A stretch of 24,000 nucleotides of DNA, taken from Clostridia bacterium (lineage in GTDB: Bacteria; Bacillota; Clostridia; HGM11514). Location of the stretch: assembly GCA_045540615.1 (NCBI GenBank), contig JAZQHN010000039.1:7996-31995 (forward strand). The letters run 5' to 3'. The notes below the pieces were generated by a model. It was given only the letters and a program-made list of their open reading frames with translations, did not search any database and was not told where the DNA came from. This document shows, one piece after another, positions 345 through 20,217 of this stretch. Each line of letters begins with the position of its first letter. Positions within the stretch are counted from its first letter, which is position 1. The translations under genes were made by a program, and so were the position numbers.

Positions 345-2785
345 GGAAGCTCCTCCAATCTAATCTCTATGGCATCAATTGTCAGACCAAATTCATGATT
401 GTTCACACTTTTCCCCAAAATATCTTCAAATCGATGTACCGCAAACTGAACGGGCTTCAGATTACTGTCCAAAGATAAAAAGGACATCCATTTCGGCAAG
501 CCCGATTCTTCAAAGGGATTCACTGTATCGGTCCGGATAGTAATTGAGGTAATTTCCTCAAGTCCATCAAAAGGAAAATAATAAGCTCCGTTATCATATT
601 TTTCAGAAAAAACTGTCAGGCTATCATTAAATACTACAGACACATGATCACGCTGATCTCTTGATTCAATCAGCAACACGCCCTTTCCTCCGGGCATTTT
701 AATCTGTTCTATCCGTGCCTCAGCCCCTGTATCATTGCCATAAAATCCGACTAAATTTCCTGCATAACTGCTTCCTTCTACGGCATTGGCATATTTCAGA
801 TGAGAAAAAGCAATCCTCCGAAAGCTATGGTCATATTCCCAAAAAGATGTTTCTACAAATACACCTGCCTCTTTTTTTAATACCAAAGGAGTATCTCCTC
901 TGTCAGAAAACCAGGCAACAAATTCTGTCAGCGGTTGAATTTCCACATATTCACAAGCATCAGAAAAACGAACGGAAAAGGTCTGACTATGATCCCGATT
1001 TAAATTTTCGGAAAAATCAAATCTCTGGTCAGAAATCATATTTTTTTCTTTATCAAACTGCCGTACTCCCAGGCGTACCGCATGACGCAAATCCTTGACC
1101 GATGCCCAACATAGCCACGGACTTCCTACATTTTGAACCGTAATTTCCAAGGTGTTCTCTGTCTGATTCCAACGGTACTCTGCATCATAATCTGCTATTT
1201 CGTCGGGATAAGCAAGTGTCTCACCCTGACCGTTACGACTATAAAGATATACAGGGCGGTTATACTCTATTCCAATCAATATGCCCTCATCGCTTAACTG
1301 ACTGCTCATCATAAAGGGTTGTCCGTAATCCTCTGTACTCATTACCAAATCAGGACGTTGTACTCGGTAATTGTGATGTTCCCAGGAAAGACGGTCTGCC
1401 CGAACATAAATTTCCGCATGCTCCGGAAGCTGTTTTGCCAACGATAAAGCACGTCCTTTATAGTTGGATTCCGGTTCAAAATAACTTCCCTGCATCCAAA
1501 TGCTTTGTACTAAAAACGCTGCAAAAATACATACAATCGTTAAATTTTTTTCCTTTTTTCCAATCCACAAAAACAGCAAAGAACCTATTAAAAACAAGCT
1601 TGCTGCCCACCAATAACGAAAGGAATGTAATATCAATCGGCTAAAAAACAAACCAGTACAATGAATCATCCAACTGTCCAGGTTTGCCGTTTCCTTTCCA
1701 TATAAAACTCCTGTCAGCAATACAACTGCAAGAGATATCATCCAAAGCCAAAAGGGCACCTTTTGTTTGCTCCAGCGGGCATACACACCCAATAGCAAAA
1801 GAGGAACAATCACTTCCAGATAACGTCCGTATAAAATATGGTCAGGCCGTTCGTGATGATACATATACACCGCAGACAAACACCACAAAAAGAAGAGGCT
1901 TGCCAAGGTGAAAATCCAAAGAATATTTCCTTTCTCTCTTTTTCTCAAAGAAGAAATTCCGTAATATAAGCCTACTGCCGCCATCCCATAGGTAGAAAAG
2001 AGCAAATAACAAAAGTGAGAAAGCAGGGTAGTCAAGAACGAAAATATCCCCTTTGCGGTCATTAAATGGATCAACTGGTCCGTAATATGGGATGCCCCTA
2101 CATGAGAGGAACCGGAACATACCAAACATATTCCCGCACTAATCATACAGGCACAGACTATTCCGCACCCGATCAGCAATCTCTTTTTCTCCTTCAGCAA
2201 CACCGCTGCCGCCACCAATGCACCCAGACAGAACATCACACCTCTGGGATGAGTTAAGGATGCCCAAATTCCCAACACGCCAAGCAAAATCCACGTTCCT
2301 GCTGATGCTCTGTTTTTTTCTAAGGAAACCAAACAAAGAGCCATTGCCAACAATAAAACCGAAAGCAAAGTTTCACACCAACCAAGGCGGACATAAGAAG
2401 TAACCGCCGGATACAACGATGCAACGCTGCAAATAAATGCACGCTTTAGTACTGCTGCCGGTTTACACCATTCCTTGCTGAGGCGGTATAAAAAAACCGG
2501 AATCAACCCTCCCAAAAAAGCATTCAGCTTAATCATGAGGGGATAGACTAGGGTAATATCATCGGAAAAGAAAAAGAAAGGAGCAGCTAAAATACTGTAG
2601 CCGGGATAATAGTGCAATCCATCTCCCGCATTTCCTGCCAATATTCTTGCCCAACCAATATAACCCGCTTCATCAGGATAGATGATAGGGAATTTAGAAT
2701 CCTTTCCCAAATACAGAAAAAACAAAGCAAACAAAAGGAATAATATTCCTTCTGTCATGAAATCTGTCTTTTTCTCCTTTGTCAT
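341..2785 (-). CDS. GT-C-like polytopic membrane protein with large C-terminal extracytoplasmic-type region, array paralog 3 (814 aa)
   Basis: Long ORF. Many hydrophobic helices in aa 1-~435, then ~380 aa that are non-hydrophobic and beta-rich. Motifs: IYPDEAGYIGWAR (2645..2683), YYPGYS, SLYPA, THPRG, YHHERPDHILYGRY. SD GAGGTGA at 2799..2793. ATGA overlap with the upstream paralog (2782-2785). The GT-C assignment is inferred from architecture and motifs. Confidence 0.8.
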   Translation of the reverse strand: MTKEKKTDFMTEGILFLLFALFFLYLGKDSKFPIIYPDEAGYIGWARILAGNAGDGLHYYPGYSILAAPFFFFSDDITLVYPLMIKLNAFLGGLIPVFLYRLSKEWCKPAAVLKRAFICSVASLYPAVTSYVRLGWCETLLSVLLLAMALCLVSLEKNRASAGTWILLGVLGIWASLTHPRGVMFCLGALVAAAVLLKEKKRLLIGCGIVCACMISAGICLVCSGSSHVGASHITDQLIHLMTAKGIFSFLTTLLSHFCYLLFSTYGMAAVGLYYGISSLRKREKGNILWIFTLASLFFLWCLSAVYMYHHERPDHILYGRYLEVIVPLLLLGVYARWSKQKVPFWLWMISLAVVLLTGVLYGKETANLDSWMIHCTGLFFSRLILHSFRYWWAASLFLIGSLLFLWIGKKEKNLTIVCIFAAFLVQSIWMQGSYFEPESNYKGRALSLAKQLPEHAEIYVRADRLSWEHHNYRVQRPDLVMSTEDYGQPFMMSSQLSDEGILIGIEYNRPVYLYSRNGQGETLAYPDEIADYDAEYRWNQTENTLEITVQNVGSPWLCWASVKDLRHAVRLGVRQFDKEKNMISDQRFDFSENLNRDHSQTFSVRFSDACEYVEIQPLTEFVAWFSDRGDTPLVLKKEAGVFVETSFWEYDHSFRRIAFSHLKYANAVEGSSYAGNLVGFYGNDTGAEARIEQIKMPGGKGVLLIESRDQRDHVSVVFNDSLTVFSEKYDNGAYYFPFDGLEEITSITIRTDTVNPFEESGLPKWMSFLSLDSNLKPVQFAVHRFEDILGKSVNNHEFGLTIDAIEIRLEELP

Positions 2786-5199
2786 TTTTCTGTCACCTCT
2801 GATTCTATTACAATCTGTTTTATTTCCAAGCCCTCGTACCGACTTTCATACCAACGGTTTAACAGCTTTACATTAGAGGTTTTCCATTCCACGGGATACC
2901 GCAAAACCATTTCAGATACCCTGTCTGTTGATAAGGGGAATCTGTAACAGCCATCCTTCCATTCTGCTTTCCCTAAGGAAACCCCGTTTACCAAAACCTC
3001 CAAAGGCTGTCCTTTTTGAGCATATATTGCTAACATTCCCTGTTCAGGGACAGGACAGGAAAAATTGGTTATTCTGCTTTCTTTCCCTGCCATTCCATTG
3101 TAAAACCCACTTAAATTGGGCTTCCATGTTGTATTTTGAAGCTCGATTCCTTCTTTCATATGGCTTAATTCAATTCTTCCGAAAGAAAGAGTCGCGCTAT
3201 CCGCTTCTTTCTCAACGGGGACAAAAATGCTCTGTCCCTTTTTGTTTTCTATTTCATACATCTGACCTTCATCCAGCCAGGTGTTATATTCTTTTGCAGC
3301 TCTTACATACACATATTTTGCTTCCTTCGGAGGCTGTAACCTCCACTCGGCACTTTCTCCTCCATACAAATTCATAGGCAATTCCAATCGGTCGGAAAAA
3401 AGGAGCGTATCATCCTCCCCGTACCATACCGCAAGCAATGCCGTACATTCCCGAATATTTTGAGCAGATGCATAACAAAGCAGGGGGGCATCCTCAGCGG
3501 TAAGAGTCGCAGTTCCGTCAGAAGAAAGGGTCACCGTTGCCCTTGATTCTCCCCGATTCATAATATCATTTTCATATTTTTTCGCAGTTTCTTCTGTCCG
3601 TGCCCATAAATATACATTCACATTTTGCTCCATTGCAAGCAAGGGCAAATCATATCCTGTCTGACGGGTTAAAAGCAATCCTTGATTTTCTTCCTCTACC
3701 GTAATAGAAAGAGAAGGATTTTCCGTCATATATCGGTCATATTCCCAGGCATAACCCAAATTATTTTCTTCCTGTTCAATCACCTTAATTTGCTCTCCGT
3801 CCGCCAACACACCCATCAGCTCTGAAGGGGTATTTCTAGCATCAGACCAGGCTTTAAAATAAGTCAAATCTGTATAACAAATACTAATGAAAAACAACAC
3901 ACAAAGAGTTAGGATCTCTGCCACTCTGCTCTTTTTCCCAATCAGGAAAAGCAATACAGATAACAGACCAAACAATAATACCATTTGCCAATAATCAAAT
4001 ACTTGTAAAACCATTCGGTAAAGCCCGATGCCAAACACCTGCGCCACTTCCGAATCCACACTGCCCGAAGAAATTCTGGCAAGAAACTCTCCTTCATTTC
4101 CGTTTGCCAAAAGAGGAGCTTGCTTCCATCCTGTTACCAAAAGGGCAAACAAGCATGGAATAAGAACCCATTTTCCCATTCTTTTTTCTTTTAACATGGC
4201 TGTGATTCCTAACAAAAGCAGTCCTACAGTCATGCAATCATTGTACCGCCCGTAAAGAATATGCACCGGTTTTTCATGATGACTCATATAAAGACAAGAC
4301 AATAAAAATAAAAAACACCAACAGCTTAAAATGCACCAAGCAGCTTGCCATCCTTGCTCTTTTTTCACAATAATCCGAATTCCGTACCAAACACCGAAAG
4401 CACCTACAAAAAAGGTAGAACAAAGGAGATAAGCTCCTTGGGAAAGAATGGCATAAAGAAAATCTTTAATGCCACGGGAGGTAAGAAGTCCTACAAGCTG
4501 TTCCTGCAAATGAAGGGTGTTGGTATTGCTTCTCAGAAAAAACAAAAAGACGGTTATCAGTCCAACGACAAAAACTACTCCCACTCCCAGTATCGCTTTC
4601 TTTCTTTGCTCCCGTTTGACCAAAACAGGCAAACTGACCGCCAACGCAGGCAACACAATCAGAGCTCTGGTATGGGTAATCAGTAGAAAAGCCGTCAAAC
4701 ATCCCAGTCTGATCCACCCCCATGTATGTTTTGGATTCTGAGAAAGCAAACCGCATTGGAGTAGATATAGCACAAAAAGGGTCGCAAGAAGAATTTCACA
4801 TAATGCCATATTTGCATACATCAGATAAGCAGGATAAAGAGCACAAGCTACTGCACAAAGGAAACTGTTTCTATCAGAAAGTGCCAATACTTTGCCCAAG
4901 CGATATACCCCTACAGGTAAAAATCCTCCGATCAGTCCATTCACTGCCAATATCAAAGGATAGGCAACAGCCAGCTTGTTGGTCAAAGCAAAAACAGGAA
5001 GTAAAAATAGGCTGTACCCCGGCAGATACCGAACTCCATCAGACATTCCGTATATGATTTTTCTTGCCCAACCGATATATCCCCGTTCATCTCCATACAT
5101 AAGGGGCATTTTCGCCGCTTGCATTAAAATAAGATGCAACAGAACAAAGGAACAATATAAGAACAACTCTATCCGATATCGTTTCATAAATTGTTTCAT
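2782..5199 (-). CDS. GT-C-like polytopic membrane protein, array paralog 2 (805 aa)
   Basis: Long ORF. TM-rich aa 1-~445 and soluble-type aa ~446-805. Motifs: MYGDERGYIGWAR (5062..5100), RYLPGYS, ALYPA, THTRA, SHHEKPVHILYGRY. SD GGGGAGGG at 5210..5203. ATGA overlap with the upstream paralog (5196-5199). Confidence 0.8.
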   Translation of the reverse strand: MKQFMKRYRIELFLYCSFVLLHLILMQAAKMPLMYGDERGYIGWARKIIYGMSDGVRYLPGYSLFLLPVFALTNKLAVAYPLILAVNGLIGGFLPVGVYRLGKVLALSDRNSFLCAVACALYPAYLMYANMALCEILLATLFVLYLLQCGLLSQNPKHTWGWIRLGCLTAFLLITHTRALIVLPALAVSLPVLVKREQRKKAILGVGVVFVVGLITVFLFFLRSNTNTLHLQEQLVGLLTSRGIKDFLYAILSQGAYLLCSTFFVGAFGVWYGIRIIVKKEQGWQAAWCILSCWCFLFLLSCLYMSHHEKPVHILYGRYNDCMTVGLLLLGITAMLKEKRMGKWVLIPCLFALLVTGWKQAPLLANGNEGEFLARISSGSVDSEVAQVFGIGLYRMVLQVFDYWQMVLLFGLLSVLLFLIGKKSRVAEILTLCVLFFISICYTDLTYFKAWSDARNTPSELMGVLADGEQIKVIEQEENNLGYAWEYDRYMTENPSLSITVEEENQGLLLTRQTGYDLPLLAMEQNVNVYLWARTEETAKKYENDIMNRGESRATVTLSSDGTATLTAEDAPLLCYASAQNIRECTALLAVWYGEDDTLLFSDRLELPMNLYGGESAEWRLQPPKEAKYVYVRAAKEYNTWLDEGQMYEIENKKGQSIFVPVEKEADSATLSFGRIELSHMKEGIELQNTTWKPNLSGFYNGMAGKESRITNFSCPVPEQGMLAIYAQKGQPLEVLVNGVSLGKAEWKDGCYRFPLSTDRVSEMVLRYPVEWKTSNVKLLNRWYESRYEGLEIKQIVIESEVTEK

Positions 5200-7529
5200 A
5201 AGCCCTCCCCAACCATAATACGGTCAATTTGAATCCCACGGGGATTAAAATCCCAGCATTGATCAAATACCTTTTCCATCCCACGTACAAACAGAGAAAT
5301 CGGCTTACATAATGAATCAGACCGTAAAAATCCGAAAATTTTCGGAACTCCTGCTTCTTTGGCGGGCACTGTTACTTCACTTTCTATTTCAATACAATTG
5401 ATTTCGGTAATTCCTTCCAAATCATAACAATACCCTTCTTTTTTGTGTGAAACCAAATTTAAAGCGGTATCGTTCACTGTTACAAAAGGAGATTCTGTTT
5501 TACTGTCCGTTTCAATGATAAGACAGCTTCCGTCAACCTTCCAACCAAGATTATCATAAATTGTCATACCCGTACTATATCCGCGAAACATTCCCTTTGT
5601 CTGACGGGGATAGTCCTCCCCGCCCAAAACATCAAATCTTTTATTCTCCACTTTTGCTTGCTTACAATCTGTTAGTTTACCGTCCTGTACCGTTACCAAT
5701 ACACAAGCAGATGCTATCACTTCAGACAAATCTACCGAGGGAGAAATTTGGATTCGATAACTGCCATCTTTTAAAGAAAGAGGTATCTCCACAGTTGTTT
5801 CTTGTCCCTGATATAAATTATGCGGTAAATCGATTCGAAACTGTTCTTCATCGTTCTCAGAAGTCACCCAGACCACCAATCTGACACAATCTTCTAAATG
5901 CTCAGCACCATTGTAGCAAATCCAGGGTGCACCTGTATTCTTCATAAAAAGGGTCAGTCCTTTTTCGTTCCAATCTATAATGTTTGCATCTCCTGAAAGA
6001 GTTTGTTCTTCTCCCTCTTTCTGACAAAGGTATAAGGCATCATAGGTTTCGCTTCCGGCTATGATACCTTCTTTTTTCTGCGTTAACAACATATCTGCAT
6101 TCTTTGAAATTGTTAATTCAGGCTTAAGCGTAAGCAAATGATATACACCCCAAGGATACCCCATGGTATCCCCCTCCAAAGGTTTGGCATCCACTTCCCC
6201 ATTCACCAGATTCACAAGCTGAGACGGTTGATAGCGAGGAGCGGCTCCCTTGATAAAGTAATCATACTTGGTATAGCATGAAGTGACCAAAAACAAAACA
6301 CATAAAAACATAGTAGCAAAAACAGGGTTGTGCTGACGAATCAAATACATTATTCCGCCCCACAAACCAAACCAGACCGCCACACCTGCAAAAGTAAAGC
6401 GGCTGAACAAAATCTTATAAAAATATAAACCCCAAGTATGACATAAATTACTGTCAATTCCAACCAATTCTGCATGATAACGAAGACCTGTAAAGACGGC
6501 TAATATGGCAAATAAAACAGCAATCCACCAGTATTTCCGTTGTTTCAAAAATGAGGTCATCCCTAACAGTAAAATGCCTCCTAAAGCGAATTCATTGTAT
6601 CGTCCATAAAGGATATGATCCGGCTTTTCATGATGATTCATAAAAATCGCAGACAAAAGCATAGAAAACAGAAAACTAATCAAAATAAACCAAACGGCAG
6701 GATGATTTTTCTTTTTGAGAAGAACAATTCCCTGCCACACACCAAGTGCCCCTACCCCAAAGGTGGACAGCATGAGATAATAGCTTTGAGAAAACAGGGT
6801 AGAAACACTGTTCCACAATCCATTCACCGTCAGCAAGCCCATAAGCTGTTCTCGAAGATGTGCACCATTGATTGATTCTGTTCCAAATAAATACAAAACT
6901 CCCGCTATGGCTGTTAAAATCAAAATACCGCAACAGGAAAACACAGCTTTTTTTCGCCATGGCTTATTCCATGCAAAGCTGCAAAATGCCGCTAATACAC
7001 CAAGAATAACCGCGCCGCACCGACCGTGACTTACCATCATCCAAACACAACAAAGCAAAGAGAGAAGTCCCGCCCATTTATGTTTTCCCCATTGGCATAC
7101 TGACCATAACAGAAAAGTATATAAAAAAGTTAAAAATACCTCTGATAAAGCAAGATTGCCGTATAACAGCCATGCAGGATACAACCCTATCACCATAGTG
7201 CTCAGCAACCTTTTTTTCCCTTCTAAAAAAGTGCTTGAAATACCGTAAAAAAGTACAGGAATTGACGCACCCAGTAAACAATTGAAGAAAATTATGACAG
7301 GATAAGCCTTCAATAGATCATTAGTAAACCAAAAAATAGGAGAAAGAAGAAAACCGTATCCGGGCAGATACCGCCAAGTTTGAGCAGACCTGCCTGCAAG
7401 CTCTCTTGCCCATCCGATATAACCTGCTTCATCGGGATAAATTAAAGGAGAAACAGCCCCCCGGGTCATCAAAACCCAGATGGCTAAAAAAGTAACATAT
7501 ATCAAAATGTGTACTTTATATCTTCTCAT
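5196..7529 (-). CDS. GT-C-like polytopic membrane protein, array paralog 1 (777 aa)
   Basis: Long ORF. TM-rich aa 1-~420 and soluble-type aa ~421-777 (5199..6269). Motifs: IYPDEAGYIGWAR (7404..7442), RYLPGYG, GLYPA, SHGRC, NHHEKPDHILYGRY (6597..6635). SD AAGGA at 7541..7537 lies inside the last codons of the M16 gene. Only 3 nt separate the M16 stop (7533) from this start. Confidence 0.8.
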   Translation of the reverse strand: MRRYKVHILIYVTFLAIWVLMTRGAVSPLIYPDEAGYIGWARELAGRSAQTWRYLPGYGFLLSPIFWFTNDLLKAYPVIIFFNCLLGASIPVLFYGISSTFLEGKKRLLSTMVIGLYPAWLLYGNLALSEVFLTFLYTFLLWSVCQWGKHKWAGLLSLLCCVWMMVSHGRCGAVILGVLAAFCSFAWNKPWRKKAVFSCCGILILTAIAGVLYLFGTESINGAHLREQLMGLLTVNGLWNSVSTLFSQSYYLMLSTFGVGALGVWQGIVLLKKKNHPAVWFILISFLFSMLLSAIFMNHHEKPDHILYGRYNEFALGGILLLGMTSFLKQRKYWWIAVLFAILAVFTGLRYHAELVGIDSNLCHTWGLYFYKILFSRFTFAGVAVWFGLWGGIMYLIRQHNPVFATMFLCVLFLVTSCYTKYDYFIKGAAPRYQPSQLVNLVNGEVDAKPLEGDTMGYPWGVYHLLTLKPELTISKNADMLLTQKKEGIIAGSETYDALYLCQKEGEEQTLSGDANIIDWNEKGLTLFMKNTGAPWICYNGAEHLEDCVRLVVWVTSENDEEQFRIDLPHNLYQGQETTVEIPLSLKDGSYRIQISPSVDLSEVIASACVLVTVQDGKLTDCKQAKVENKRFDVLGGEDYPRQTKGMFRGYSTGMTIYDNLGWKVDGSCLIIETDSKTESPFVTVNDTALNLVSHKKEGYCYDLEGITEINCIEIESEVTVPAKEAGVPKIFGFLRSDSLCKPISLFVRGMEKVFDQCWDFNPRGIQIDRIMVGEGL

Positions 7530-12575: not shown

Positions 12576-13265
12576 TTATGATTGAAATAAAGCTTGATAT
12601 GCCATTTCGGCAGCACTTAACTCCATATTGCATCGGATGATATAACAGTCCGAACATTCCAGTAAGTTTCCGATTAAATCCATAGTTTTGGACAGCTTTT
12701 CCGGACTTTTCGGCAAGTAAACCTGACCGAGCAGTCTGGGTAATACTTCTTTTTTTGCCAGAGGTACACATTGGTTTTCCTCTGCCCGTTCGATAAAACA
12801 AATTTTTTTCAAAGGCACCGAGGTATTGGTCTGAAGTCCTTCTTTCCCTGCCCATGGAGTGCCATAGGCAATCGGTTCTCCGTTTTTCATTCTGATCAAA
12901 GGCTTATCCCCGTTTACCACCGTTACCTTCTCGCCAAACAGCCGTTGCCACAATCTCAGGTGAGTGGTTTTTCCCGTTCCGCTTTTTGCAAGGAAGGCAA
13001 CACCTGTACCATTGATTTCCAATACCGCACCATGCATTAAAAATCCATCATAGTCTAAGAGCCGTTCCGAAATTTTCCGATAAACTGCAAGGGTTTCCAG
13101 ATAAGGAAGTGATCCCTCTCCTTCTGCTCGAATTTCTTCTTCGGTTACAGAAACAGTTATATCAGGCCGGGAAAAGGAAGTGAGATATGCCCGACACATC
13201 TGCTCAATCAAAGAAAATCGGTTTTCGATTTGAATATTCAATTCTGCCAGACAAACCTTAATCAT
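12576..13265 (-). CDS. HPr kinase/phosphorylase C-terminal-domain-like P-loop protein (function unknown)
   Basis: HGAVLEINGTGVAFLAKSGTGKTTHLRLW resembles the HprK-type 'G.GVL..G.SG.GKS' nucleotide-binding segment. I moved the start to ATG 13265 (MIKVCLAEL...), which follows GGAAGAGGAAGAG. The track start is a TTG further upstream. There is an 8-nt overlap with the upstream gene's stop (13258). Confidence 0.6.
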   Translation of the reverse strand: MIKVCLAELNIQIENRFSLIEQMCRAYLTSFSRPDITVSVTEEEIRAEGEGSLPYLETLAVYRKISERLLDYDGFLMHGAVLEINGTGVAFLAKSGTGKTTHLRLWQRLFGEKVTVVNGDKPLIRMKNGEPIAYGTPWAGKEGLQTNTSVPLKKICFIERAEENQCVPLAKKEVLPRLLGQVYLPKSPEKLSKTMDLIGNLLECSDCYIIRCNMELSAAEMAYQALFQS

Positions 13266-13764
13266 GCTGCTCTTCCTCTTCCATAAAAATCCAATCCATG
13301 CCAATAGGAGCTATGATAATCACCAATAATAACAATCCGTGAAAAATCAATGCAGAAACCAAATTGGAAATTCCCAAAGGGCTGTACCGCAAAAATTTTG
13401 TAATAGCAAAGCACCAGGCATACGCTGTATTACCTGCCAAAACGTAAACCAGTAAGGAAACTATCACAAACAAAAAGTATGCAATGAAATTAGAATAATA
13501 ATACATTTTTTTATCTTGCAAATCATAAAAACATTGCTTCAGCTGATGAAGATTCAGCAATAAATATGCCAATGTACCCAAGGTCAAAAACACCATCAGC
13601 ATTTTCTTCGAGCCGGCAATTCCTGAAAAATTAAATAAAATTCCAAATGCAGACAAAAACACCGACCAAAAGAGCATCTCAAGAAAGCGTCTGACCGTTA
13701 AACCGGCAACACCCGCTTGGAACATTTTTTCTTCGTCAAATTCTTGTTGTAAGTCAAAATTCAT
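13258..13764 (-). CDS. Four-helix integral membrane protein, unknown function
   Basis: About four hydrophobic segments (WSVFLSAFGILF, MLMVFLTLGTLAYLLL, FIAYFLFVIVSLLVYVL, LVSALIFHGLLLLVIIIAPI) and an acidic C-tail, EEEEQHD. ATG 13764 is preferred over the TTG at 13776. The start is uncertain. Confidence 0.65.
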   Translation of the reverse strand: MNFDLQQEFDEEKMFQAGVAGLTVRRFLEMLFWSVFLSAFGILFNFSGIAGSKKMLMVFLTLGTLAYLLLNLHQLKQCFYDLQDKKMYYYSNFIAYFLFVIVSLLVYVLAGNTAYAWCFAITKFLRYSPLGISNLVSALIFHGLLLLVIIIAPIGMDWIFMEEEEQHD

Positions 13765-15192: not shown

Positions 15193-16122
15193 TTATTTTA
15201 CGTAAGCTTTCACTAACTCTTCCATTGCTGACTCATCTTCAGGGTCGGGAGCAGTAACACCGCTGTACAAAGACCAATGCTCCGTATGCTCAATGCATTC
15301 TCCGGGGGCTACCTTTTTCAAGGGGCTGATGGATTCCATTTCCAGCATCAGACTGTTGGTGTAGGTTTCAAAAGACATTCCTCCGTCGGGATACTCTGCA
15401 CCTTCATGAAGCTCAAACTGTTTTACAAACAAATCACCATTTAAGCAATAAGCTGCAAAACCATGTTCGCTGTTGATTCCGAACTTAATGGGGCAGTCAG
15501 CATCAGGATGCTGCTGTAAAGAAATGTAATTATCCCCCCAATAAACCCGTTTGTCAGTCATTTTGGTGTAGGGCCATAGGGCAAGCAAACGGTTGCCTAA
15601 CAGCACCGTATCCTTCTGAGGCTGAGGAACGATTTCAATTCCGCCTCTTGCCAAAACGGTCAGTGCCCATGCAGCAAATTCTATATCCCATGCACCTAAG
15701 TTTACAATTTTATGCTTTACGGTTACCTTTGCACTTTCAGGACACATGGTAATCTCCATTTGCTCCTGAAGCTGAGTCCATTTTTGAGGAGGAGGGGTCA
15801 GTAAAACACCATTTTCAATTTCCTCCCAGGCAACAGGCTCGTTATCAGGATAATAGGAACGGGGGCTTGCTTCGGGGCTGGTCCACAGTCTGTGTCCCCC
15901 ACGGATATACCAGGTAGCATCCTTGCCATACACCTGATCAAAATCTTCACCGGATGCAGAGGATTCCACTTCTGTATCTTCACAAAACAGATTTTGCCCG
16001 CCGATAAATCCGAAACGAATCACACGGGGACCGAAGTCCAGCGTAATCAACAGTTCAGCCTTGTCGTTGTAAAGCCGCAGGCAATTTCCCCAGCTTTCGT
16101 AAGTTACTTGTTCTAAGCTCAT
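15193..16122 (-). CDS. Galactose-mutarotase-like / DUF4380-like protein (tentative)
   Basis: 309-aa soluble protein. The segment GGHRLWTSPE and an overall beta-rich pattern resemble aldose-epimerase-like DUF4380 proteins. This is recollection only. GGAGAAAG SD is present. It starts 22 nt after the hpf stop. Confidence 0.45.
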   Translation of the reverse strand: MSLEQVTYESWGNCLRLYNDKAELLITLDFGPRVIRFGFIGGQNLFCEDTEVESSASGEDFDQVYGKDATWYIRGGHRLWTSPEASPRSYYPDNEPVAWEEIENGVLLTPPPQKWTQLQEQMEITMCPESAKVTVKHKIVNLGAWDIEFAAWALTVLARGGIEIVPQPQKDTVLLGNRLLALWPYTKMTDKRVYWGDNYISLQQHPDADCPIKFGINSEHGFAAYCLNGDLFVKQFELHEGAEYPDGGMSFETYTNSLMLEMESISPLKKVAPGECIEHTEHWSLYSGVTAPDPEDESAMEELVKAYVK

Positions 16123-16144: not shown

Positions 16145-16675
16145 TTATTCTTTTTTTGTATTCATTAAGCCATAACCACCGTCATTACGACGATACACCA
16201 AATCCGTTTCCAGAGTTTCTGCATTCTGAAACAGGAAGAAGGTATGCCCCAACAAATTCATTTGCAGGATTGCTTCCTCCACGCTCATGGGTTTAATCTG
16301 CACCGATTTGGTACGGACAATATTGAATTCCTTTTCTTCTTCCTCAGGAGGAACATCCTCCTGCAAGAGTAACATACCTGTACGGAGCTGTTTTTCCAAA
16401 CGGGTTTTGTTTTTGCGAAGCTGACGTTCCAGCAATTCCTCCACTCTGTCAATACAGGGAAGAATTTCTTCTCCGCTTGCTTCACCCCGGAAAATCATAC
16501 CACCATGAGAGATGGTTGCCTCTACAATGACAAGCTTGCCTTTGTGAGGACGGATGGTAACGTGACAAATTACATCATCGGGGAAAAACCGATTCAGTTT
16601 TTCCAGCTTTTGCTCTGCCTTGTCCCGAACTGCATCCGAAATCTCCATTTTTCTGCCAACCATAATACACTTCAT
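16145..16675 (-). CDS. hpf: Ribosome hibernation-promoting factor, long form
   Basis: The N-terminus MEISDAVRDKAEQKLEKLNRFF and the C-terminal dimerisation-type segment IVRTKSVQIKPMSVEEAILQMNLLGHTFFLFQNAETLETDLVYRRNDGGYGLM are characteristic of long HPF (YvyD type). GAGGAG SD is present. Confidence 0.93.
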   Translation of the reverse strand: MKCIMVGRKMEISDAVRDKAEQKLEKLNRFFPDDVICHVTIRPHKGKLVIVEATISHGGMIFRGEASGEEILPCIDRVEELLERQLRKNKTRLEKQLRTGMLLLQEDVPPEEEEKEFNIVRTKSVQIKPMSVEEAILQMNLLGHTFFLFQNAETLETDLVYRRNDGGYGLMNTKKE

Positions 16676-16791: not shown

Positions 16792-19602
16792 TTATACAAA
16801 ATACCACTGAGGGAACCAACATAGCCACTGTTGAACAAACCCCCATGGTACTTCTGCCCCGGAAAGAACGGGATAAAAGAGCACGAACAACACACATGCA
16901 CAGCCTATCGCTCCCCATACAATTCCCTTCTGTACCTTTGAAGAAGGTGTTCTCTTCTGATACCAATACAACAATGCCAGAATCAGGAAGGGAGTGCAAT
17001 TAAAATAATGATAAATAAATACGATTCTGGTTACAAAAACCCAAGGCAAAATCTGTGCAAGATAACTGCATCCGATGATCCATGCTTCTTTGGATTTTTC
17101 CCGAATGCCTGTAATCGCCATAGCAATAATGGCAATCAGACCGCCCCACCAAATCACAGGATTTCCAAAGGTGGCAATGGTACTAATCCCTCCCGTAACC
17201 GTTTCCTGACGATAAAATACCATGGGCTTTACCATAATCAGCCATTCATACCAGGGAGAAGAATAGCCATGCTCTGCATCCAACTTGCTGTGATAATCAT
17301 ACATATCAAACTGATTGTTCCATACCGTTTGCCAGCTTTGTCCTGCACACTTTGTCCAAGGGAGATAAGATAAAGCATAAATTACCACAGGCACCAGCAC
17401 AAAGAAAATCATACAAAAACCGCATCGCTTCCAAGCAATTTTTTTGAAATTTTCTTCCTTGCGGTTAAGAAACAAATCCACGAAGAAAAGTACCGCCAAA
17501 CCAGCTCCCGCGTAAATACAAGTCCATTTAGATGCAGCACCCAATCCAAAGAAACTTCCGCACAAACCCAAAGAACGGTAGCTATGGGTTTTTAAATAAT
17601 CTGCCATAAACAGGGTCATAAGCAAAATGAAAAAGAGAGCATAGGTATCTATGGTTGCAATTCTGGTTTGAGCAAAGTGCATAAAATCAAGGGCAAACAA
17701 TCCGCATCCCAAAATTGCTGTTTTACCTTTGGGAAATATCTTTTTGCAAAGAAGATAAAATATGGGAAGCATCAGACAACCAAATAAGGTTCCCATAAAC
17801 CGCCAGCCAAAGGGTGTCATTCCAAACAGAGAAATCCCTACGGAAATCAAAACCTTGCCCAGGGGAGGATGAGTGGTTTCATAAGGGCTCATGCCATGAA
17901 TAAATTCATATGCTGTTCTTGCGTGGTAAATTTCATCAAAATAGGTTCCATTTTTATAAGTAGGCTCGTAAACTGCCAACTCCTGCTCATCTGTGATCAG
18001 CTCCCAAACAGGTTCAGACGGAATCGGAATCTGTTTTCCTTCTTTATCAAACAATGCCAACTCACCGATACTTCCCGGCATATCCAGAACACGGATGAAT
18101 AAGTACCGTCCTGAGAGGTCAGTATCTGATTGATGCCAGCTAAAGCAATAAGGAGATTCAAATCGTGCAATCTGTTCTTGGGCTCCTGTCACCTCTTTAG
18201 AAAGATAAAATTCATAATTGGCATGGGAAATTCCTGTATATACCATCAAACGGGACAAATCATACTCTTCCCCTAAATCCATCCACATAACCGTTCCTTC
18301 CGAAACATTCCAAAAGCTTTGAGGTGCAGATTTGTCTCCTAAGTTTACAAACGCTGTCACCGAATAAACCAAAGTAATCAAAAGCACCAAAGGAAGCTCA
18401 CGATTTTTTTTCCACTTCTTCAATGATATATTCACATCCTTTTTTCCATATGTAACACGATATTGCAAAGCTCCCGCAAACAAGCTAAGAAGAGAAAATA
18501 TCATAATTGCAGGAAAAGCAATGGGTCGGTATCCGTTCAAAGCAGATGTTAATGCCAACCATACATTAATAAAATTGGCAAGAGAAATCAAACCATAGGC
18601 ACTAATCAATCCCTTTTCTTTTTTCTCACCTTCAGCAAATGCCGCCAACAGCAACAAAACAACAGGATACCAATACCGTTCATGCATCATGGGACCGAAT
18701 AAAAAGAGAGTGGTCATGGCAGCAGCTGCAGATAACCAGCAGCCTTTTTTCCAAAGAAAATAAGAAAGAAAGCCTAAAATCACTCCGACCCCAATCATAA
18801 CCTTTCCCCAAAAACCATAGGTAAAAAACAAGAATGGCTGGGATAACTCTGTCCAGTTTGCTCCTAAAAAACCATACAAATTAAAAGCATTGACAGTAGC
18901 ATAAGGATATCCGCCCGTCATAGTACCGAAGTATTTGTCCAAAATTATCGAATAATCTCCAAGACAAAAGGGGAAGGTCGCAATCAGAAAAATTAAAAGA
19001 CCTGTTCCCAAAGCTTTCAAATATTCCAAAACCGGCTTTTTTTTGTCAAAATAAAATGCAGCCATCATAGGAAAAAACAGAAGTGCCTGTGGTTTTATCA
19101 ACACCGAGATTGCCAGCATTGCAGCACTTTTAATACGATTTTCCCTCCACAATATTGCCAAAAGAAGAAACAAACACCAAACAGAATCAATCTGTGCCCA
19201 AACGGATGAATTAATCACCATTAGCGGATTGAATAAAAGAAGAGCAACCACCAAAATTTGTCGTTTTTCTCCACCCTTTTCCAATGCCATTTTTCCTAAT
19301 AAAAAAGCAATCAGCAAATCTGCTGCTATAGCAGGCAGTCGTAAAATAAGAAACGAAAGGGGTCGTACCCCTTCGAACAATTTCATTAACCAACTCAAAG
19401 GATACAACAAATAAAAATATCCCGGAGGATAGTCGCAAAAATCGGTTGCCTGATAAAAGCCCCAAGGTGCTGCCTCCCTTAAGGTCTCAGCCCAACTAAA
19501 AAAACATGCCTGGTCAGTAGGGTGTCCCCATTGCCCGAACAGTCCCAAAGCAACCCGAAGAAGCAAACCAATGATAAAAAGCCAAATTACCTTTTTTTTC
19601 AT
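16792..19602 (-). CDS. Dual GT-C glycosyltransferase fusion: N-terminal DUF2029/Gpi18-like-type module plus C-terminal GT39 (PMT-type) module (936 aa)
   Basis: Numbering here follows the 945-aa track ORF.
- Module 1 (aa ~10-400): DFCDYPPGYFYLLYP (19417..19443) in the first loop, many TM helices, MHERYWYP.
- Then a TM helix and a ~130-aa beta-rich insert.
- Module 2: YFDEIYHARTAYEF (17905..17946), then THPPLGKVLISVGISLFGMTPFGWRF, the hallmark of PMT/GT39 enzymes.
The start is set at ATG 19602 (MKKKVIW...), preceded by AGGAGG. ATGA overlap with the upstream gene. Confidence 0.8.
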   Translation of the reverse strand: MKKKVIWLFIIGLLLRVALGLFGQWGHPTDQACFFSWAETLREAAPWGFYQATDFCDYPPGYFYLLYPLSWLMKLFEGVRPLSFLILRLPAIAADLLIAFLLGKMALEKGGEKRQILVVALLLFNPLMVINSSVWAQIDSVWCLFLLLAILWRENRIKSAAMLAISVLIKPQALLFFPMMAAFYFDKKKPVLEYLKALGTGLLIFLIATFPFCLGDYSIILDKYFGTMTGGYPYATVNAFNLYGFLGANWTELSQPFLFFTYGFWGKVMIGVGVILGFLSYFLWKKGCWLSAAAAMTTLFLFGPMMHERYWYPVVLLLLAAFAEGEKKEKGLISAYGLISLANFINVWLALTSALNGYRPIAFPAIMIFSLLSLFAGALQYRVTYGKKDVNISLKKWKKNRELPLVLLITLVYSVTAFVNLGDKSAPQSFWNVSEGTVMWMDLGEEYDLSRLMVYTGISHANYEFYLSKEVTGAQEQIARFESPYCFSWHQSDTDLSGRYLFIRVLDMPGSIGELALFDKEGKQIPIPSEPVWELITDEQELAVYEPTYKNGTYFDEIYHARTAYEFIHGMSPYETTHPPLGKVLISVGISLFGMTPFGWRFMGTLFGCLMLPIFYLLCKKIFPKGKTAILGCGLFALDFMHFAQTRIATIDTYALFFILLMTLFMADYLKTHSYRSLGLCGSFFGLGAASKWTCIYAGAGLAVLFFVDLFLNRKEENFKKIAWKRCGFCMIFFVLVPVVIYALSYLPWTKCAGQSWQTVWNNQFDMYDYHSKLDAEHGYSSPWYEWLIMVKPMVFYRQETVTGGISTIATFGNPVIWWGGLIAIIAMAITGIREKSKEAWIIGCSYLAQILPWVFVTRIVFIYHYFNCTPFLILALLYWYQKRTPSSKVQKGIVWGAIGCACVLFVLFYPVLSGAEVPWGFVQQWLCWFPQWYFV

Positions 19603-20123
19603 ATTGCTTCCTCCTTTTCTTTCACACAAGTAATCACACTGTAATGACCATCACACAGAAAACGAATTTCTCCGAACCCTGATTTTGTTAAAGAATGTTT
19701 GATCAAATCGGTATACAGATTGGTCTGAGGCTGTGCAAGAAAGATCAGCTTGCCCCCCTCTTTCACCAAACGGTATGCATCACCTAACAATTGCTCCAAA
19801 TCCTCTGTCAATAAGGTTTCAGGACAAAAAACTCCAATATCAAATACTCTGTCCTGAATCTGAGACAAGACACCTTCAAAGGAAATCATATGTTTCCCTG
19901 TTACTGCCAATTTTTTCTGTTCTTTGGTTTCTGCTTGGGCAACCGCCAACAACCGGGATGGCTTTTCCTCCAGTAATGCTTTCAGCATGGAAATAGGTGC
20001 CTCGTAGCAAATGATTTTCTTTCCCGGCTCCTCTGCAAATAATTTTGCCAACTGCACAGTTTTTTTATCCTTTGAAAGCTTTCCGGAAACAAATTCCGTC
20101 AGCACTTTTTGAAAATAGTTCAT
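19599..20123 (-). CDS. Class I methyltransferase-fold protein with degenerate SAM-binding motif I
   Basis: 174 aa from ATG 20123 (MNYFQKVL...), preceded by GGAAAGGAAG. FDIGVFCPETLL....LLGDAYRLVKEGGKLIF matches the post-motif II/III region of Rossmann-fold methyltransferases. The expected motif-I position reads KKIICYEAP, with no G.G.G. The promoter mapped at 20188-20217 lies inside the longer track ORF, which supports the shorter start. Confidence 0.6.
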   Translation of the reverse strand: MNYFQKVLTEFVSGKLSKDKKTVQLAKLFAEEPGKKIICYEAPISMLKALLEEKPSRLLAVAQAETKEQKKLAVTGKHMISFEGVLSQIQDRVFDIGVFCPETLLTEDLEQLLGDAYRLVKEGGKLIFLAQPQTNLYTDLIKHSLTKSGFGEIRFLCDGHYSVITCVKEKEEAI

Positions 20124-20187: not shown

Positions 20188-20217
20188 ATTATATCATATA
20201 CTCCGTCTCCTTTTCAA
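20188..20217 (-). promoter_or_regulatory. Sigma-A type promoter of the MTase-fold / dual-GT-C operon
   Basis: Minus strand reads TTGAAA (20217..20212), an 18-nt spacer, then TGA-TATAAT (extended -10; TATAAT at 20193..20188). Confidence 0.7.

Follow-up and report, generated by a model that had tools for sequence, protein, structure and literature searches.

To our knowledge, most work on protein O-mannosylation by PMT-type protein O-mannosyltransferases concerns eukaryotes and Actinobacteria, and hardly any concerns Firmicutes. In M. smegmatis the mycobacterial Pmt pulls down the GT87-like protein MSMEG6899, the homolog of ML2687c/Rv0051, and the two are predicted to form a heterodimer resembling yeast Pmt1-Pmt2 (bioRxiv 10.64898/2026.07.15.738315). 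The same preprint mentions translational fusions of GT39 enzymes with a GT87-family enzyme in Paenibacillus (UniProt V9WAU2). That single sentence was the only mention of the fusion in our literature searches, which returned no characterised member of the family. Here we analyze a gene of this fused type in a 24,000-nucleotide stretch of DNA from a Clostridia bacterium (GenBank assembly GCA_045540615.1, contig JAZQHN010000039.1, positions 7,996 to 31,995), hereafter called the window, in whose numbering all coordinates are given. The gene encodes one chain with two complete and different GT-C glycosyltransferase modules, an N-terminal module of ALG6/GT87 type (N-module) and a C-terminal PMT module (C-module), each with a set of predicted catalytic residues. 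The fused architecture is already noted in the literature and is common in Firmicutes, and the window protein is an additional member; what we add is a mapping of catalytic residues, a labile junction between the modules, and the contrast with a mycobacterial partner that is reported to be catalytically dead. The gene and its two modules are located as follows.

16792-19602, minus strand: fused glycosyltransferase gene, complete, 936 aa, stop codon included (open reading frame and identical or near-identical homologs).
18448-19602, minus strand: N-module, residues 1-385, a GT-C_A module with 12 transmembrane helices, of ALG6/GT87/PIG-M type (profile, Pfam matches of relatives, AlphaFold2 model, Foldseek).
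16792-17961, minus strand: PMT core of the C-module, residues 548-936, with PMT/PMT_2 and PMT_4TMC (Pfam, Foldseek).

The Paenibacillus fusions have the same module order, GT87-like N-terminal and PMT C-terminal. They contain PF09594 and PMT domains and are about 35% identical to the window protein over 97-100% of its length. They are longer, about 1250-1320 aa, with extra F5/8-type-C or CBM_4_9 domains, whereas the window protein, from an uncultured lineage of gut Clostridia, is a minimal version of 936 aa with a single insert resembling a carbohydrate-binding module of family 32 (CBM32). The mycobacterial proteins, Pmt (ML0192c/Rv1002c) and ML2687c/Rv0051, likewise pair a GT39-type with a GT87-type GT-C protein, and the split relatives of the window gene described below are the two-chain equivalent of this pair. 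In mycobacteria, however, two unfused genes encode the pair, Pmt lacks a CBM-like domain and works with a separate beta-propeller protein instead, and the partner is reported to be without the catalytic residues, which are invariant in the window family.

A preliminary description of the gene, made from the sequence alone, had proposed a polypeptide with two different GT-C modules and suggested scanning the halves separately. In such scans the C-half (residues 548-933) scored above the Pfam cut-offs for PMT_2 (59.6 bits, cut-off 26.1), PMT_4TMC (56.9, cut-off 32.4) and PMT (42.5, cut-off 22.7), and the N-half could be matched only through its family profile and its structure. The PMT signature YFDEIYHARTAYEF is present at residues 554-567, encoded by 17902-17943; the preliminary description had recognized this signature but placed it one codon off, at 17905-17946. 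The catalytic motif of PMTs is the DE motif (bioRxiv 10.64898/2026.07.15.738315), located here in the first outer loop of the C-module.

17932-17937, minus strand: codons of D556-E557, the PMT DE motif in the first outer loop of the C-module, invariant in 64 of 64 fused homologs (YFDEIYHAR).

The best structural matches of the C-module are the yeast Pmt1-Pmt2 and Pmt4 dimers (6P25, 9E61, 9I5K; E 6e-12 to 3e-8). The seven top matches in Foldseek were Pmt4 (9i5k, E 5.9e-12) and Pmt1/Pmt2 (6p25, E 2e-8 to 3.1e-8), and the match to ArnT was weaker. The yeast Pmts work as GT-C dimers and, like the C-module, carry a DE motif in their first luminal loop. In eukaryotes a GT39 enzyme pairs with a GT39 paralog, and MIR beta-trefoil domains occupy loop 5; the window protein instead combines two GT-C families and has a CBM32-like sandwich in loop 1 as its accessory domain. 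No MIR domain was matched by Pfam in loop 5, where the model shows only two short strands. Bacterial Pmts are likewise devoid of the MIR domain, which occurs in eukaryotic PMTs only.

The two-module claim depended on the N-half, because the C-half passes the Pfam cut-offs and the N-half alone matches nothing: as a single sequence its ~390 residues gave no match in Pfam (E<=1), in NCBIfam or among PDB sequences. Its identity was revealed solely by family profiles and structure. Homologs of the N-half include many with PF09594 (GT87/DUF2029), Alg6_Alg8, ALG3, PIG-U or PMT_2, and in individual Pfam scans of 42 aligned relatives GT87 (PF09594) was found in 29, with a best E of 1.2e-10, and Alg6_Alg8 (PF03155) in 19. 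A family profile built on the N-module matched yeast ALG6 (6SNH) in the PDB with an E of 1.4e-14 over profile positions 24-372, and GPI mannosyltransferase I (PIG-M) with an E of ~5e-15; PimE was not reached by this profile search of the PDB. The AlphaFold2 model of the N-half had a predicted local distance difference test score (pLDDT) of 93.8 and a predicted template modelling score (pTM) of 0.93, and its top PDB matches in Foldseek were all of the GT-C_A type, namely ALG6 (TMq 0.70), PimE (9dm5/9dm7, TM 0.62-0.66), GPI mannosyltransferase I and ALG3.

ALG6 (GT57, 6SNH) and PimE (GT87, 9DM5) thus stand out as the best profile and fold matches of the N-module. Both are metal-independent, inverting GT-C_A enzymes that use polyprenyl- or dolichyl-phosphate-monosaccharide donors. 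ALG6 has 14 transmembrane helices and a lipid-linked oligosaccharide as acceptor, and PimE acts on a glycolipid, whereas the model of the N-module has 12 helices. The N-half is a genuine GT-C module, and its ALG6/PIG-M profile matches and GT-C_A fold reject the idea that it is just extra transmembrane helices of a long GT39 enzyme. To GT87 it can be assigned only transitively and at the clan level. The preliminary description had likened the N-half to both the DUF2029 (GT87) and the Gpi18 (GT76) type; the former fits the 29 of 42 relatives with GT87, but the latter is not supported, as no PIG-V/Gpi18 match was obtained in Pfam for the window sequence nor was this family among the top families of the relatives. 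"Gpi18-like" is a label of the Joint Genome Institute (JGI) on some homologs.

In the profile alignment, D87, D117 and H396 of the ALG6 chain pair with D30, D57 and H307 of the window protein. The numbering of that chain carries a constant 18-residue tag, so that these residues are D69, D99 and H378 of ALG6. D69 serves as the catalytic base (PMC12653191), and activity also depends on D99 and H378 (PMC10859629). In PimE, D58 at the tip of the first juxtamembrane helix was equated with the catalytic Asp of ALG6, and K195 and H322 are phosphate-binding (PMC12041525). The corresponding codons in the window are:

19513-19515, minus strand: D30, predicted catalytic base of the N-module, equivalent to ALG6 D69 in the profile alignment.
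19432-19434, minus strand: D57 of the DYPP motif, equivalent to ALG6 D99 in the profile alignment.
19093-19095, minus strand: K170 of the KPQ motif, candidate ligand of the donor phosphate (conservation; analogy with PimE K195).
18682-18684, minus strand: H307 of the MHERY motif, equivalent to ALG6 H378 in the profile alignment.

The motifs around D57 and H307 had been pointed out in the preliminary description and are present as DFCDYPPGYFY at residues 53-63 and MHERYWYP at residues 306-313. D30 is found at the start of helix 28-44 in the model and is conserved in all 64 fused homologs and in 41 of 41 stand-alone relatives. Conservation is likewise complete for K170 and for H307-E308-R309 (64/64 fused homologs and 42/42 stand-alone relatives each), and D57 is present in 64/64 and 37/42, respectively. 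With equivalents of ALG6 D69, D99 and H378 conserved, the N-module looks catalytically competent. Its catalytic base is likely D30 and not the DYPP aspartate D57, and by analogy with PimE K195 we regard K170 as a candidate ligand of the donor phosphate.

The full-length model (pLDDT 92, pTM 0.77) was separated by Foldseek against the PDB into three units, the PMT C-module, the N-module with its likeness to ALG6, ALG3 and PimE, and a CBM32-like sandwich, and its sole disordered stretch was residues 390-398 (pLDDT <50). Between the two catalytic sets lie the following features.

18397-18447, minus strand: cytoplasmic Lys/Arg-rich linker, residues 386-402, the fusion junction (7 K+R in 17 residues; low pLDDT).
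18349-18396, minus strand: first transmembrane helix of the C-module, residues 403-418, with its start inside and its end outside (helix in the model; positive-inside analysis).
18028-18330, minus strand: extracytoplasmic beta-sandwich insert, residues ~425-525, similar to CBM32 and F5/8 type C domains (model, Foldseek).

The strands of the sandwich span residues 431-519 in the model, and the region ~430-520 matched the CBM32 modules 4a42 and 7d29 in Foldseek (TMt ~0.6); longer homologs carry PF00754 or PF02018. The domain is placed between the first transmembrane helix of the PMT module and the DE motif, and helix 403-418 and the sandwich correspond to the linker helix and extracytoplasmic insert that the preliminary description had seen between the modules. 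The density of K+R was 0.33-0.60 in the loops predicted inside and 0.00-0.25 in those predicted outside, in line with the positive-inside rule. From this we infer an N-module of 12 transmembrane helices with both ends inside, a cytoplasmic linker, and a next helix leading outward. On the basis of this topology and the helix count, D30, D57, K170, H307, the CBM32-like domain and D556-E557 are all predicted on the outer face, and hence the acidic loops of the two modules face the same side, an arrangement that had been suggested for verification. Taken together, the ALG6/PIG-M profile and GT-C_A fold of the N-half and the PMT matches of the C-half bear out the proposal of a single polypeptide with two different GT-C modules.

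A single base separates the fused gene in the window from a split state. The linker aligns with the stop of gene 1 and the start of gene 2 in split relatives, and two short elements in it mark the former or alternative boundary.

18440-18445, minus strand: A6 homopolymer; an in-silico A5 variant gives two genes of 389 aa and 547 aa with a GTGA overlap.
18432-18435, minus strand: vestigial GTGA with an in-frame GTG that encodes V390; in split relatives the GTG start of gene 2 overlaps the TGA stop of gene 1 here.

Since replacing A6 by A5 gives exactly the split arrangement of close relatives, the fusion could in principle be a sequencing or assembly frameshift, in which one extra A at 18440-18445 falsely joins two real genes. 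We consider this extremely improbable and reject it on several independent grounds. The same A6 run and frame are present in locus L005, an independent Logan assembly that differs by 14 single-nucleotide polymorphisms in 2811 nt (99.5% identity), and the 90% cluster of the window protein has 936- and 937-aa members from several runs. L022, with 86% nucleotide and ~90% protein identity, is fused through a different junction, AGA AAG AAG GAA GTG AAT, that has no A6 homopolymer. An Oscillospiraceae protein (P0065, 70% identity) from a metagenome-assembled genome (MAG) likewise occurs as a fusion, with conserved synteny, in two JGI metagenomes. In NCBI the protein P0189 is 100% identical to the window protein, and P0064 (99%) and P0185/P0187 (~90%) are fused as well. 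The ribosome binding site also bears on this question: in split relatives AAGGAG precedes the start codon of gene 2 by 8-11 nt, whereas only 1 nt lies between the two in the window, which would fit a loss of independent initiation at gene 2.

A break of another kind was seen in the same 90% cluster, where one 8388-bp Logan contig encodes a 240-aa protein (P0184) and a 717-aa protein (P0186). In this assembly of a lineage with ~90% identity, the fused gene is interrupted at ~residue 220, away from the natural junction, which reflects either a pseudogene or a sequencing frameshift. The gene in the window has long A homopolymers in addition to the A6 run in its linker, with A8 runs at residues 2, 187 and 398 and an A7 run at residue 720; these are potential slippage or phase-variation sites and also typical places of sequencing errors.

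The preliminary description had also suggested a search for split versions in related genomes, and these exist as adjacent genes. The N-half has its closest relatives among stand-alone proteins of 391-395 aa, whose contigs show the same gene order as the window: DUF421, a ~171-aa gene, the GT87-like gene, a 542-aa PMT gene, the gene of the ribosome hibernation factor (HPF), and DUF4380. The GT87-like and PMT genes of these close relatives overlap by 4 bp. A scan of species-representative genomes turned up relatives in MAGs only, the species of the window itself not being among them. Distant stand-alone homologs of the N-module are also located directly upstream of a PMT gene, in pairs of 429 + 563 aa (4-bp overlap), 481 + 645 aa and 482 + 637 aa. 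Pairing of the two modules is obligate, as every stand-alone N-module homolog that we examined precedes a PMT gene.

Fusion is nevertheless the majority state in what is a large Firmicutes family, to which the window protein belongs. A full-length search gave more than 100 proteins with 97-100% query coverage and 33-38% identity, many of them with PF09594 and PMT domains, from Paenibacillus isolates and from MAGs of Clostridia, Lachnospiraceae and Christensenellaceae. In an exhaustive search of 50%-identity clusters, 149 of the 150 best representatives were 975-1418 aa long, i.e. fused. The rarity of the fusion that the preliminary description had implied was thus not upheld; fused homologs are annotated in RefSeq, as "glycosyltransferase family 39 protein" or "phospholipid carrier-dependent glycosyltransferase", and the fusion is mentioned in the 2026 preprint.

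To see how the two states are distributed, a neighbour-joining tree was made of the concatenated modules (905 columns, 200 bootstraps). The window falls within a clade of 100% support in which the two basal branches (L008 and L016) are split, with ATGA overlaps. An inner group with 98.5% support holds the fused window species and the fused L013 together with the split L014, L015 and L018, which have GTGA overlaps. Under either scenario the tree requires at least two fusion or fission changes within this small clade, and L010/L011 represent another split elsewhere in the family. The A-rich linker, rich in Lys codons, evidently permits switches of ±1 nt between one chain and two translationally coupled chains. 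Such switching is natural "Rosetta-stone" evidence that the modules work together.

GtrA is adjacent to the glycosyltransferase gene or genes in L021, L010 and L011. The Paenibacillus donghaensis locus L019 (CP021780.1, 4992-13077) contains a PMT_2 GT-C gene (670 aa), the fused gene of 1268 aa, GT2, GtrA and a sortase. This cluster is a candidate for a complete surface-glycosylation cassette in a cultivable organism and as such a useful experimental model.

Based on these comparisons we propose a mechanism in which a cytoplasmic GT2 enzyme would make polyprenyl-phosphate-hexose and a GtrA-type protein would help it across the membrane. Joined in the manner of the Pmt1-Pmt2 dimer or of the Pmt/GT87-like pair proposed for mycobacteria, each module would move a sugar from a polyprenyl-phosphate donor onto an extracytoplasmic acceptor. 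This type of donor is suggested by the GT2 and GtrA genes next to distant homologs, by the logic of three-component GT-C systems, and by the donors of ALG6, PimE and PMTs. Most likely the PMT module would modify Ser/Thr residues of proteins that are secreted or exposed at the cell surface, and the N-module would then add a further sugar, while the CBM32-like domain would probably help to hold the glycosylated acceptor. In the window lineage the fused state would have arisen, or have been kept, by a 1-nt frame change in the A-rich linker. Most likely, then, the modules work as an obligate pair with two active sites, using polyprenyl-phosphate sugar donors on the outer side of the membrane. We regard catalysis by both of them as rather probable. 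A more specific version, in which they act in sequence on one acceptor, the PMT module priming Ser/Thr, the N-module extending and the CBM32-like domain holding the nascent glycoprotein, is put forward tentatively, as plausible but less probable than not.

Several observations weigh against an obligate unit with two active sites acting on proteins. D57 is replaced by N or P in 5 of the 42 stand-alone relatives, and scans of the window proteins with Pfam and NCBIfam revealed neither a GT2 nor a GtrA gene in the window. For the equivalog model of Pmt in NCBIfam (NF058602, cut-off 800) the full protein scored 58.7 bits and the C-half 61.8 bits; the C-module is thus PMT-like, related only distantly to the characterised Pmt of Actinobacteria and not orthologous to it, and may act on an acceptor other than protein. 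Furthermore, the mycobacterial GT87-like partner without catalytic residues provides a precedent for a scaffold (bioRxiv 10.64898/2026.07.15.738315). Following this precedent, the PMT module alone could transfer sugar and the GT87-like module could serve as a scaffold or acceptor recruiter, like Pmt2 or ML2687c/Rv0051. The co-purification of Pmt with a GT87-like protein that is devoid of catalytic residues fits such a division of labor, the preprint cites the Paenibacillus fusions as a sign of general dimerisation (bioRxiv 10.64898/2026.07.15.738315), and the obligate pairing of the modules fits a structural partnership equally well. A pure scaffold, however, would not be expected to keep D30, D57, H307 and K170 invariant in all 64 fused homologs, nor to retain them in the stand-alone relatives at the level described above, where only D57 varies. 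For this reason we find a catalytically silent N-module unlikely.

Both modules could also be active but serve different acceptors, or act on something other than protein, for instance teichoic acid or a polysaccharide of the wall, with no priming and extension of one glycan. The true protein O-mannosyltransferases among the best structural matches of the C-module, in preference to ArnT, and the presence of PMT_4TMC, a PMT-specific domain, argue against this, and we hold it to be distinctly unlikely. It would nevertheless account for the score of the C-module far under the Pmt equivalog threshold, and it agrees with the CBM-like domain in the acceptor-side loop of the C-module and the extra CBM domains of homologs. 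A further PMT_2 GT-C gene and a sortase in the Paenibacillus cluster, and the rhamnose-precursor genes that L011 adjoins, point in the same direction.

The open reading frame of the fused gene extends over 16792-19629 (minus strand) and is 945 aa long when counted from a TTG. We took the ATG at 19602 as the true start, which gives the 936-aa protein encoded by 16792-19602 (minus strand), because AAGGAGG is located 7 nt upstream of it, the ATG overlaps the preceding stop (ATGA) and the gene calls of the homologs agree. Two features upstream of the start are as follows.

19599-20123, minus strand: 174-aa gene of unknown function, its stop overlapping the start of the glycosyltransferase gene (ATGA), conserved in position.
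20188-20217, minus strand: candidate sigma-70-type promoter of the operon, TTGAAA-18-TATAAT, 11/12 with an extended TG (consensus match only).

The number of sigma-70-type consensus sites in the promoter region was not above the expectation from shuffled sequence. A gene of 171-174 aa is also found directly upstream of the glycosyltransferase gene in L001, L004, L005, L006 and L022. The 174-aa product gave no Pfam, NCBIfam or significant PDB match, the best being an S-adenosylmethionine-dependent methyltransferase with an E of 0.08, and it could be an accessory factor of the glycosyltransferase. On the other side, a Ribosomal_S30AE gene for a ribosome hibernation factor (16145-16675, minus strand) and a DUF4380 gene (15193-16122, minus strand) follow. 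These two genes adjoin the glycosyltransferase gene or gene pair in L001, L004, L006, L008, L020 and L022, and the linkage is conserved down to relatives of ~38% identity (L020, L008). Further away, at 12576-13304 (minus strand), there is a 242-aa open reading frame without a Pfam hit; in NCBIfam it weakly resembles the SynChlorMet cassette protein ScmC and HprK-related kinases (E 1.4e-5, far below the cut-off).

The window contains a second set of genes with a likeness to the N-module. Three translationally coupled tandem paralogs of 814, 805 and 777 aa are encoded at 341-2785, 2782-5199 and 5196-7529 (minus strand), with 29-34% mutual identity and a multi-transmembrane N-half. They gave no Pfam, NCBIfam or PDB sequence match, and their family has 18 matches among 5.8 billion proteins, none of them with a Pfam domain. 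An invariant Y-x-D-E-x-GYIGWAR is found in the first loop, followed later by HHEKPxHILYGRY. In hhalign this family aligned with the N-module family over 274 columns with a probability of 94.5% and an E of 8e-8, pairing D37 of the paralogs, the Asp of the DE motif, with D30, LPGY with YPPGY, and HHEK with MHER. The tandem paralogs are probably a new GT-C_A family in triplicate, and they may be more novel than the fused glycosyltransferase.

In the family described here, the PMT-type module of Firmicutes is always coupled to a second GT-C module with intact catalytic residues, so tightly that lineages pass freely between a single chain and a translationally coupled pair. This coupling supports the proposal that bacterial Pmts are hetero-pairs with GT87-like proteins, and it sets up a testable contrast with the reportedly dead partner of the mycobacterial Pmt. 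In practical terms the gain is modest and consists of targets for mutagenesis, D30, D57 and H307 versus D556/E557, together with natural split and fused variants. If the two modules do act in sequence on one acceptor, the fused protein would be a self-contained O-glycosylation machine with two active sites in Firmicutes, and the switching between fused and split states would be natural evidence for Pmt-GT87 hetero-pairs in general.

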